The notes under the pieces are model-generated. The model saw nothing but the letters and a program-made list of their open reading frames with translations. It was not told the DNA's origin and made no database searches. The position numbers and the translations under genes are program-made. This document shows positions 37,198-54,863 of a DNA stretch of 64,000 bases, in pieces. Location: assembly GCF_054482525.1 (NCBI RefSeq), contig NZ_CM137006.1; one strand, written 5' to 3'. Each line of letters opens with the position of its first letter. The stretch's first letter is position 1.

Positions 37198-37728
37198 ATG
37201 GCTATCACTGGCATCTTTTTCGGCAGCGACACCGGTAATACCGAAAATATCGCAAAAATGATTCAAAAACAGCTTGGTAAAGACGTTGCCGATGTCCATG
37301 ACATTGCAAAAAGCAGCAAAGAAGATCTGGAAGCATATGACATTCTGCTGCTGGGCATCCCAACCTGGTATTACGGCGAAGCGCAGTGTGACTGGGATGA
37401 CTTCTTCCCGACTCTCGAAGAGATTGATTTCAATGGCAAACTGGTTGCGCTGTTTGGTTGTGGTGACCAGGAAGATTACGCTGAATACTTCTGTGACGCA
37501 TTGGGCACCATCCGCGACATCATTGAACCGCGTGGCGCAACCATCGTTGGTCACTGGCCAACTGCGGGCTACCATTTCGAAGCGTCAAAAGGTCTGGCAG
37601 ATGACGACCACTTTGTCGGTCTGGCTATCGACGAAGACCGTCAGCCGGAACTGACCGCTGAACGTGTAGAAAAATGGGTTAAACAGATTTCTGAAGAATT
37701 GCATCTCGACGAAATTCTCAATGCCTGA
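37198..37728 (+). CDS. fldA: Flavodoxin 1
   Basis: 176 aa from [27 protein letters not shown] (FMN-binding T/SxTGxT loop). Confidence 0.95.
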
Positions 37729-37933
37729 TGTGATGCGGCGTAGACTCATGTCTACGCCGTATTAATAGATAATGCCAATCAAAATAATTGCTACAAATTT
37801 GTAACTTTTGCTGTTGTACCTGTACAATGTCCCGGTGTTCAAGTGGCCTTGCCGTTGTAAATGTAAGCAGTGCCACGTTTTTATTAACAATATTTGCCAG
37901 GGACTTGTGGTTTTCATTTAGGCGTGGCAATTC

Positions 37934-37952
37934 TATAATGATACGCATTATC
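37934..37952 (+). promoter_or_regulatory. Fur-box-like operator (tataatgatacgcattatc) overlapping the uof start
   Basis: About 15 of 19 matches to the GATAATGATAATCATTATC consensus; consistent with fur autoregulation. Confidence 0.55.
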
Positions 37953-38024
37953 TCAAGAGCAAATTCTGTCACTTCTCCTAATGAAGTGAACCGCTTAGTA
38001 ACAGGACAGATTCCGCATGACTGA
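37938..38024 (+). CDS. uof: fur upstream leader peptide
   Basis: 28-aa ORF MIRIISRANSVTSPNEVNRLVTGQIPHD ending inside the fur start region (translational coupling). Confidence 0.8.
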   Translation: MIRIISRANSVTSPNEVNRLVTGQIPHD

Positions 38025-38463
38025 TAACAATACCGCCCTAAAGAAAGCTGGCCTGAAAGTAACGCTTCCTCGCTTGAAAATCCTGGAAGTTCTTCAGGAG
38101 CCGGACAACCATCACGTCAGTGCGGAAGATTTATACAAACGTCTGATCGATATGGGTGAAGAAATTGGTCTGGCTACGGTATATCGCGTACTGAACCAGT
38201 TTGACGACGCTGGTATCGTCACCCGCCACAATTTTGAAGGCGGTAAATCCGTATTTGAACTGACACAGCAACATCACCACGATCACCTGATCTGCCTCGA
38301 CTGCGGCAAGGTAATCGAATTTAGTGATGATTCCATCGAAGCGCGTCAGCGTGAAATTGCCGCAAAACATGGCATTCGCCTGACTAACCACAGTCTCTAT
38401 CTTTACGGTCACTGTGCCGAAGGCGATTGCCGCGAAGATGAGCACGCGCACGAAGGCAAATAA
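38017..38463 (+). CDS. fur: Ferric uptake regulator
   Basis: 148 aa, MTDNNTALKKAGLKVTLPRLKILEVLQ... Confidence 0.97.
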   Translation: MTDNNTALKKAGLKVTLPRLKILEVLQEPDNHHVSAEDLYKRLIDMGEEIGLATVYRVLNQFDDAGIVTRHNFEGGKSVFELTQQHHHDHLICLDCGKVIEFSDDSIEARQREIAAKHGIRLTNHSLYLYGHCAEGDCREDEHAHEGK

Positions 38464-53438: not shown

Positions 53439-54863
53439 ATGACCAAAAAACTCCATATTAAAACCTGGGGCTGTCAGATGAACGAGTACGATTCATCGAA
53501 GATGGCCGATCTGCTGGATGCCACCCACGGCTATCAACTGACCGACGTGGCGGAAGAAGCGGATGTGCTGCTGCTGAACACCTGCTCAATCCGCGAGAAG
53601 GCTCAGGAAAAAGTCTTCCATCAGTTGGGTCGCTGGAAACTGTTAAAAGAGAAGAATCCAGACCTGATTATCGGCGTCGGCGGCTGCGTGGCATCGCAAG
53701 AAGGCGAGCACATTCGCCAGCGCGCCCACTATGTCGATATTATTTTTGGACCGCAAACGCTGCACCGTCTGCCGGAGATGATCAACTCCGTGCGCGGCGA
53801 CCGCAGCCCGGTTGTAGATATCAGCTTCCCGGAAATCGAGAAGTTTGACCGTCTGCCGGAACCGCGCGCCGAAGGGCCGACCGCGTTTGTCTCCATCATG
53901 GAAGGCTGCAATAAATATTGCACCTACTGCGTAGTGCCTTACACCCGTGGTGAAGAGGTAAGCCGTCCGTCCGACGATATTCTGTTTGAGATCGCCCAGC
54001 TTGCGGCTCAGGGCGTGCGTGAAGTCAACCTGCTCGGTCAGAACGTGAACGCCTGGCGTGGTGAAAACTACGACGGCACCACCGGATCGTTTGCCGATCT
54101 GCTGCGTCTGGTTGCGGCGATCGACGGGATCGATCGTATTCGCTTTACCACCAGCCATCCGATCGAATTCACCGACGATATCATCGAAGTGTACCGCGAC
54201 ACGCCGGAGCTGGTGAGCTTCCTGCATCTGCCGGTACAGAGCGGTTCCGATCGCATTCTGAACCTGATGGGACGTACCCATACAGCGCTGGAGTACAAAG
54301 CGATCATCCGTAAACTGCGTGCAGCGCGTCCGGATATTCAGATCAGTTCTGACTTCATCGTTGGCTTCCCTGGTGAAACCACCGAAGACTTCGAGAAAAC
54401 GATGAAGCTGATTGCCGACGTCAATTTCGACATGAGCTACAGCTTTATCTTCTCTGCACGTCCGGGTACGCCAGCCGCCGATATGGTTGATGATGTTCCG
54501 GAAGAAGAGAAGAAGCAGCGTCTGTATATTCTACAAGAACGTATTAATCAGCAAGCGATGGCATGGAGCCGCCGGATGCTCGGCACCACCCAGCGTATTC
54601 TGGTAGAAGGTACATCGCGTAAGAGCATCATGGAGCTTTCCGGTCGCACTGAAAATAACCGCGTGGTCAACTTCGAGGGCACACCGGATATGATCGGTAA
54701 ATTCGTCGATGTAGAAATTACCGACGTCTACCCGAACTCTCTGCGCGGTAAAGTGGTGCGAACTGAAGATGAAATGGGTCTGCGCGTGGCAGAAACACCG
54801 GAATCGGTCATTGCCCGTACCCGCAAAGAAAACGACCTTGGCGTGGGTTATTATCAGCCGTAA
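53439..54863 (+). CDS. miaB: tRNA methylthiotransferase (radical SAM)
   Basis: 474 aa; radical-SAM CxxxCxxC (CNKYCTYC). Confidence 0.95.

Follow-up and report, generated by a model that had tools for sequence, protein, structure and literature searches.

The 64,000-nucleotide stretch of DNA analyzed here (the window) very probably carries the fur control region of an E. coli strain other than K-12, together with the uof leader ORF, the Fur box, the fur promoter (Pfur) and regulation of the K-12 type. The original prediction, a uof leader and a Fur operator before fur, was correct and also ordinary, given that this arrangement is already annotated and studied. Fur is the master iron regulator, and the circuit of uof, RyhB and MiaB is a textbook case of small RNA action through an upstream ORF (uORF); finding it in the window only confirms the E. 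coli fldA-fur locus. The additions made here are modest: the start of the uORF is part of the promoter and operator, the short Pfur transcript is unable to code for uof, and the distribution of the uORF among relatives is patchy.

The genes of the locus and the signals at the uof-fur junction are as follows.

37198..37728, plus strand: fldA (flavodoxin 1) coding sequence, from the ORF list, the K-12 annotation and the synteny fldA-uof-fur.
37938..38024, plus strand: uof, 28-codon leader ORF of fur, S14P allele relative to K-12, from the sequence, the K-12 annotation and NCBIfam NF011344.
38003..38006, plus strand: AGGA, probable Shine-Dalgarno sequence 10 nt ahead of the fur ATG (putative function).
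38017..38024, plus strand: ATGACTGA, overlap of the fur start with the stop codon of uof, that is, the coupling junction; invariant in 50 aligned leaders.
38017..38463, plus strand: fur coding sequence, 148 aa, from the ORF list and NCBIfam NF006999 (309 bits, cut-off 146).

As had been predicted, a 28-codon frame ends inside the start region of fur. Read in the window and given in the ORF list alike, it runs from the ATG at 37938-37940 to the TGA at 38022-38024 and encodes the peptide MIRIISRANSVTSPNEVNRLVTGQIPHD; the fur ATG begins at 38017, with uof ending 8 nt within fur and ATGACTGA forming the overlap. The ACAGGAC around the putative Shine-Dalgarno sequence is invariant or nearly so across the 50 aligned leaders. 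Length alone would be unremarkable for a 28-codon ORF, as 50 ORFs of at least 20 aa overlap the same 3-kb stretch. The identity of this ORF as uof, however, is beyond doubt, and nothing speaks against it. The peptide matches the NCBIfam model NF011344, 'fur leader peptide', with 81.3 bits (cut-off 71) over residues 1-28 of 28. At the same position, between fldA and fur, the K-12 feature table has uof (b4637), a 'RyhB-regulated fur leader peptide', and among the matches listed in complete E. coli genomes all carry the RefSeq annotation 'uof: fur leader peptide | fur'. The name given to the ORF is thus upheld. An 84-aa minus-strand ORF with a GTG start (37718-37972) was considered and is without support, and an Rfam search of the region returned no family, only two chance matches with E of at least 2.

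Comparison with the annotated uof-fur region of K-12, which had been suggested as a check, places uof in the same spot and leaves little room for divergence. From the fldA stop to the fur start, 2 of 302 nt differ from MG1655: 37869 (A in the window, T in K-12) and 37977 (C in the window, T in K-12); the DNA from 37870 to 37976 is identical. K-12 uof (b4637; Vecerek, Moll and Blasi 2007) likewise has 28 codons and the ATGACTGA overlap, and its UCA at codon 6 and its complement to the RyhB seed are identical in the window. The one difference within uof is S14P, produced by the T to C change at 37977 in the loop of a leader hairpin, by which one UCU codon is lost. The 372 nt around the site have a match of at least 95% identity in 5424 of 5426 complete E. 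coli genomes, and the exact uof allele with P14 is present in 393 of those 5424 (~7%). In addition, E. coli strains SCU-102 and PCN033 share a 24-kb part of the window at 100% identity.

Upstream of fur, the promoter and operator signals occupy these positions.

37799..37828, plus strand: candidate upstream promoter (Puof), TTGTAA - 18 nt - TACAAT, 9/12 in a consensus scan.
37911..37939, plus strand: Pfur, a sigma-70 promoter with -35 TTTTCA at 37911-37916, a 17-nt spacer and -10 TATAAT at 37934-37939, 10/12.
37934..37952, no strand assigned: Fur box, the Fur operator of the fur promoter, 19-mer TATAATGATACGCATTATC, from the consensus match and the published K-12 footprint.

The Fur-box-like 19-mer that was said to overlap the uof start codon does so: TATAATGATACGCATTATC covers the ATG. 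It agrees with the consensus GATAATGATAATCATTATC at 16 of 19 positions and is the sole sequence with at most three mismatches in the 64 kb, where shuffles give an expectation of 0.01. In K-12, the fur promoter is among the footprinted Fur sites compiled by Chen et al. 2007 (PMC2189734), at the old coordinates 709931-709960; according to Table 3 of that paper, the source is the DNase I work of de Lorenzo et al. 1988. The published matrix scan finds two overlapping sites there, the strongest of 12.3 bits, which cover 83% of the footprint; the genome-scan cut-off of that matrix is 10 bits, and the 12.3 bits refer to the identical K-12 sequence (PMC2189734). Between K-12 and the window, the 19-mer shows no sequence difference and overlaps the -10 of Pfur alike. 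We take the two K-12 sequence versions to be offset by 777 nt, which would put the footprint at ~37926-37955 of the window, enclosing the 19-mer; the offset fits, in that the fes and entC sites then fall within their own listed footprints.

We also built a Fur matrix of our own by de novo palindromic motif finding in eight other footprinted operators (fepA-fes, fepB-entC, tonB, cir, sodA, fecA, fhuF and ryhB) and scored the whole window with the resulting motif, AATGATAATCATTATCATT. Its register lies 3 nt off the classical 19-mer, so that start 37934 scores negative and the meaningful registers are 37931 and 37937. These score 8.5 and 3.0 bits, respectively, and the site ranks 10 of ~64,000 window positions, as against leave-one-out scores of 14.7-27.2 bits for the known operators. 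The weight-matrix check proposed with the original prediction therefore gives a mixed answer: the site stands above the cut-off of the published matrix and is weak by our eight-operator matrix. We conclude that TATAATGATACGCATTATC is a real but weak Fur box, weak in comparison with strong operators such as sodA, ryhB, entC and fhuF; protection by Fur itself would carry over from the K-12 footprint. One might argue instead that the 19-mer is an AT-rich -10 that resembles a Fur box by chance, without Fur autoregulation here, given that 6 of its 19 bases are the -10 hexamer and that its score in our matrix is far below those of strong operators. This is scarcely credible in view of the published DNase I footprint over the 19-mer and its score in the published matrix (PMC2189734), the uniqueness of the match in the window, and the two positive registers 6 bp apart, a spacing typical of Fur sites that recurs in the published scan.

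Two other matches to our matrix may be mentioned. A second, weaker Fur-box-like sequence, GATAATGCCAATCAAAATAATTGCT (~9 bits), lies at 37768-37792, just upstream of the candidate Puof; the stretch is rich in ATAG...CTAC and looks like an OxyR site region. The strongest match of the window, AATTACAATCGTAATTAAT, is at 61182-61206, between a divergently oriented pair formed by a rhomboid-family protease gene and gltI, and scores 14.2 bits with the 19-wide and 16.2 bits with the 25-wide matrix.

In a consensus scan, Pfur is the best promoter-like site of the region, and its GTTTTCA and TATAAT are almost invariant across Enterobacterales (80 fur loci). The Fur box shares this TATAAT with the core promoter, and the ATG of uof is made up of the final two bases of the -10 hexamer and the next G (TATAATG). 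The earlier observation missed this overlap and its consequence: the first six bases of the box serve as the -10 of Pfur, hence Pfur transcripts cannot encode uof. In K-12, the Fur box overlaps the -10 of Pfur-a and fur transcription starts within uof (PMC7867234; PMC6191717). For the window, we infer a Pfur start near 37946-37947, likewise inside uof; Pfur transcripts would then be without the uof AUG, and only longer transcripts initiated upstream could encode uof. Such transcripts have been described. A separate uof promoter and an fldA promoter lie upstream of the ORF (PMC7867234; PMC6191717; PMC4161252), and according to published K-12 work, co-transcription of ybfE-fldA-uof-fur means that read-through from the fldA promoter carries uof-fur (PMC4161252). 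The published uof promoter likely corresponds to the hexamer pair at 37799..37828, from which a transcript would begin near 37835 and include the uof start codon.

Two short elements within uof bear on its regulation.

37953..37955, plus strand: UCA, the sixth codon of uof (serine), whose decoding reportedly requires MiaB-modified tRNA-Ser (sequence; PMC11448259).
37957..37962, plus strand: GAGCAA, complement of RyhB nt 42-47 (UUGCUC, including G44 and C45), from duplex prediction.

In K-12, translation of fur is coupled to that of uof (PMC7534054; PMC12683245; PMC11448259), RyhB blocks uof initiation (PMC7534054), and the UCA codon makes uof decoding dependent on MiaB and iron (PMC11448259). 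All sequence features needed by this mechanism are present in the window, namely the stop/start overlap, TCA and GAGCAA, and RyhB itself is found in 5424 of 5426 E. coli genomes. By near-identity of sequence, the K-12 mechanism of RyhB, coupling and MiaB should apply here as well. Following the published K-12 work, Fe-Fur would bind the box and weakly repress Pfur, while the uof start codon would be carried by longer RNAs, which either originate at an OxyR-dependent promoter upstream or read through from fldA. Ribosomes translating uof would terminate on the fur start and thereby allow fur to be translated. Under iron limitation, RyhB would pair with the uof region and block uof initiation, lowering Fur synthesis, and a loss of MiaB activity would lower it too by slowing the decoding of UCA. 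To this we would add that Pfur transcripts, starting at ~37946-37947 without the uof AUG, would have to be reached by RyhB through another route, e.g. decay, and that the uof start codon presumably exists because promoter and operator read TATAATG. A comparable design is seen in thrL and ivbL, targets of GcvB, where a small RNA acting on a short upstream ORF controls the downstream gene as it does with uof (PMC7534054). However, thrL and ivbL act through transcription attenuation, whereas uof acts through translational coupling at the stop/start overlap.

The predicted contact between RyhB and uof centers on GAGCAA, 19 nt into uof, with a core duplex of -11.9 kcal/mol; its partner bases G44 and C45 of RyhB are essential for uof/fur repression (PMC6191717). 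A discontinuous duplex of 37925-37971 with RyhB 37-78, predicted at -20.2 kcal/mol, covers the uof AUG and has GAGCAA as its core. These energies are within background, in that the best local site is equalled by 4% of random 30-nt windows, and a published benchmark failed to reproduce the RyhB-uof pairing model. Energy prediction alone cannot confirm the pairing of RyhB with uof from this sequence; this is a second point that the earlier observation missed. We used local RyhB scans in place of unrestricted duplex folding against the whole leader, which was discarded, as its end-to-end pairings were matched by shuffles and by other segments of the window. Within the leader, the stretch most complementary to the RyhB core in the local scans lies upstream of uof, at 37856-37884 (-17.9 kcal/mol), and its pairing is stronger in the window than in K-12 (-14.1) owing to the A/T difference at 37869. 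As a RyhB site it was rejected, being not significant against that 4% of background windows and weaker in K-12.

A published finding complicates a mechanism that acts through uof only. By Northern analysis, RyhB lowers the short Pfur transcript and not the uof-fur transcript (PMC6191717); an effect on a transcript that lacks the uof AUG is a poor fit to uof as the sole point of action, and RyhB probably also acts through decay that does not depend on uof initiation. In a stronger version of this idea, the main effect of RyhB on Fur would come from base pairing at the 5' end of the short Pfur RNA and from the decay that this triggers, leaving uof gating a minor part confined to long transcripts. 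Besides the Northern data, the position of the seed complement at 37957-37962 argues for it, as this lies ~11 nt from the predicted 5' end of Pfur RNA and so is on that transcript. Reviews of the original work nevertheless state that RyhB blocks uof initiation (PMC7534054), the extended predicted duplex covers the uof AUG, and decay and uof gating are not mutually exclusive. We consider it rather unlikely that decay is the main route, and prefer uof gating with decay alongside it.

The gene miaB itself is in the window, at 53439-54863, ~15 kb downstream of uof; this is the normal E. coli gene order and the proximity is probably coincidental.

Apart from its coding potential, the leader contains a local RNA structure.

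37969..37989, plus strand: stem-loop UCACUUC / UCCUAAU / GAAGUGA, uof codons 11-18, from folding and shuffles.
Corresponding stems elsewhere: GCUCC/GGAGC in Atlantibacter; GCUCA/UGAGC in Cedecea; GCCC/GGGC in Mangrovibacter; AGGCU/AGCCU in Pectobacterium and Dickeya.

The 7-bp stem-loop folds with -8.5 kcal/mol (z = -3.7), and 0 of 200 shuffles were as stable; the base that makes S14P, 37977, sits in its loop. In other genera, a hairpin is found at the same distance from fur (~-49 to -28) with different stems, whether the uORF is intact or not. RNAalifold did not recover the leader hairpin from a MAFFT alignment of 50 sequences, in which loops of variable length put the 5' arms out of register, and it was replaced in this test by a covariance model of the E. 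coli-type stem. The model matches the fur leader in 50 of 81 sequences (the window and 49 of 80 related loci); in its alignment 90% of cells are paired, compared with 32-54% in slid controls, and two pairs are changed on both sides. Because the structure itself guides this alignment, and most stems show simple conservation, these figures are only suggestive of hairpin conservation. The whole 115-nt Pfur leader is no more stable than shuffles (z = 0.48), and we therefore make no claim of a structure that sequesters the fur ribosome-binding site.

How far the uORF is shared was followed in 81 sequences, the window plus 80 related Enterobacterales fur loci, with 66 distinct leaders serving for the open-frame counts. 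The E. coli-type frame, which starts at the ATG of the -10 and ends at +5, is present in 37 of the 81, with 28 or 29 codons; it occurs in Escherichia, most Citrobacter, Enterobacter, Kosakonia, Kluyvera, Phytobacter, Leclercia and Pluralibacter. Another frame gives an ATGA overlap at +1 in Mangrovibacter, Cedecea, a Buttiauxella and others (loci L022, L027, L030, L054, L056 and L065). In four loci (Buttiauxella izardii, B. agrestis, Dryocola and an Enterobacter sp.; L057, L058, L060 and L063), the frame of the -10 ATG is in frame with fur and, if used, would give Fur an N-terminal extension. The frame stops upstream of fur in 24 of the 81, including Salmonella, Klebsiella oxytoca, Raoultella and Atlantibacter; the Salmonella uORF has 16 codons and stops at -30 because of a 1-nt deletion in the hairpin loop. 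Eight of the 81 lack the -10 ATG, and the remaining 73 have TATAAT followed by the G that completes it, whether or not the frame is open. Conservation of the uof ORF in relatives, on which the original prediction depended, thus holds for most of the Enterobacteriaceae genera sampled, and the ORF is broken in Salmonella and Klebsiella. The uORF is therefore lineage-restricted, being present in Escherichia and most Citrobacter and Enterobacter, which sets bounds on any generalization of the K-12 mechanism.

The open frame may itself be under selection. Of 66 distinct leaders, 44 keep it open as far as the fur start, compared with 17.6 +/- 3.6 expected from composition-matched shuffles, counts for which shared ancestry is uncorrected. 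Where the frame would terminate in ATGACTGA, 40 of 47 leaders have it open; where it coincides with the fur frame, 4 of 19 do. As a control within the same sequences, the other two frames are open in 1/66 and 27/66. Taken together, and with the counts uncorrected for ancestry, support for selection on an open uORF is moderate. What is kept does not appear to be the peptide: Escherichia itself has Ser, Pro or Phe at codon 14, and the uof peptide sequence itself is hence not conserved. Of the 33 intact uORFs from other species, just 12 have TCA at codon 6.

These patterns invite the opposite view, in which the uof frame arises largely as a by-product, with an ATG imposed by the TATAATG of -10 and Fur box, and the functional elements are the promoter, the operator and the RNA hairpin rather than translation of the ORF. 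The ATG does persist irrespective of an open frame, Pfur transcripts begin downstream of it, and codon 14 is free to vary; moreover, Salmonella, C. sedlakii and Enterobacter sp. Bisph1 have lost the frame to 1-nt insertions or deletions in the loop of the hairpin, and one of the control frames is likewise open in 27 of 66 leaders. Yet experiments in K-12 show coupling (PMC12683245; PMC7534054), the ATG frame is open far above its expectation, intact uORFs differ in length by 3 nt (28 vs 29 codons), and frames ending in ATGACTGA stay open where those in the fur frame mostly do not. We therefore regard a mere by-product as quite improbable, and hold to uof as a translated leader of K-12 type.

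More tentatively, the uof ATG may be hard-wired in an ancient Pfur -10/Fur box (TATAATG), with selection across Enterobacteriaceae keeping any open frame from this ATG that ends on the invariant ATGACTGA of fur. Either of two frames would serve, the +5 type or the ATGA type seen in Mangrovibacter, Cedecea and a Buttiauxella, and no particular peptide would be kept; Salmonella and Klebsiella, being without such a frame, would be left with the conserved hairpin of the leader and with other routes. We put this forward as a possibility that is more doubtful than not.

One last observation concerns the beginning of the fur coding sequence. The second codon of fur is ACT in 77 of the 80 related loci, though synonymous sites of the following codons vary, and the constant ACT means that the TGA stop of uof is kept. 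The exceptions are L046, L068 and L074, and the uORF of L046 runs on to +68.
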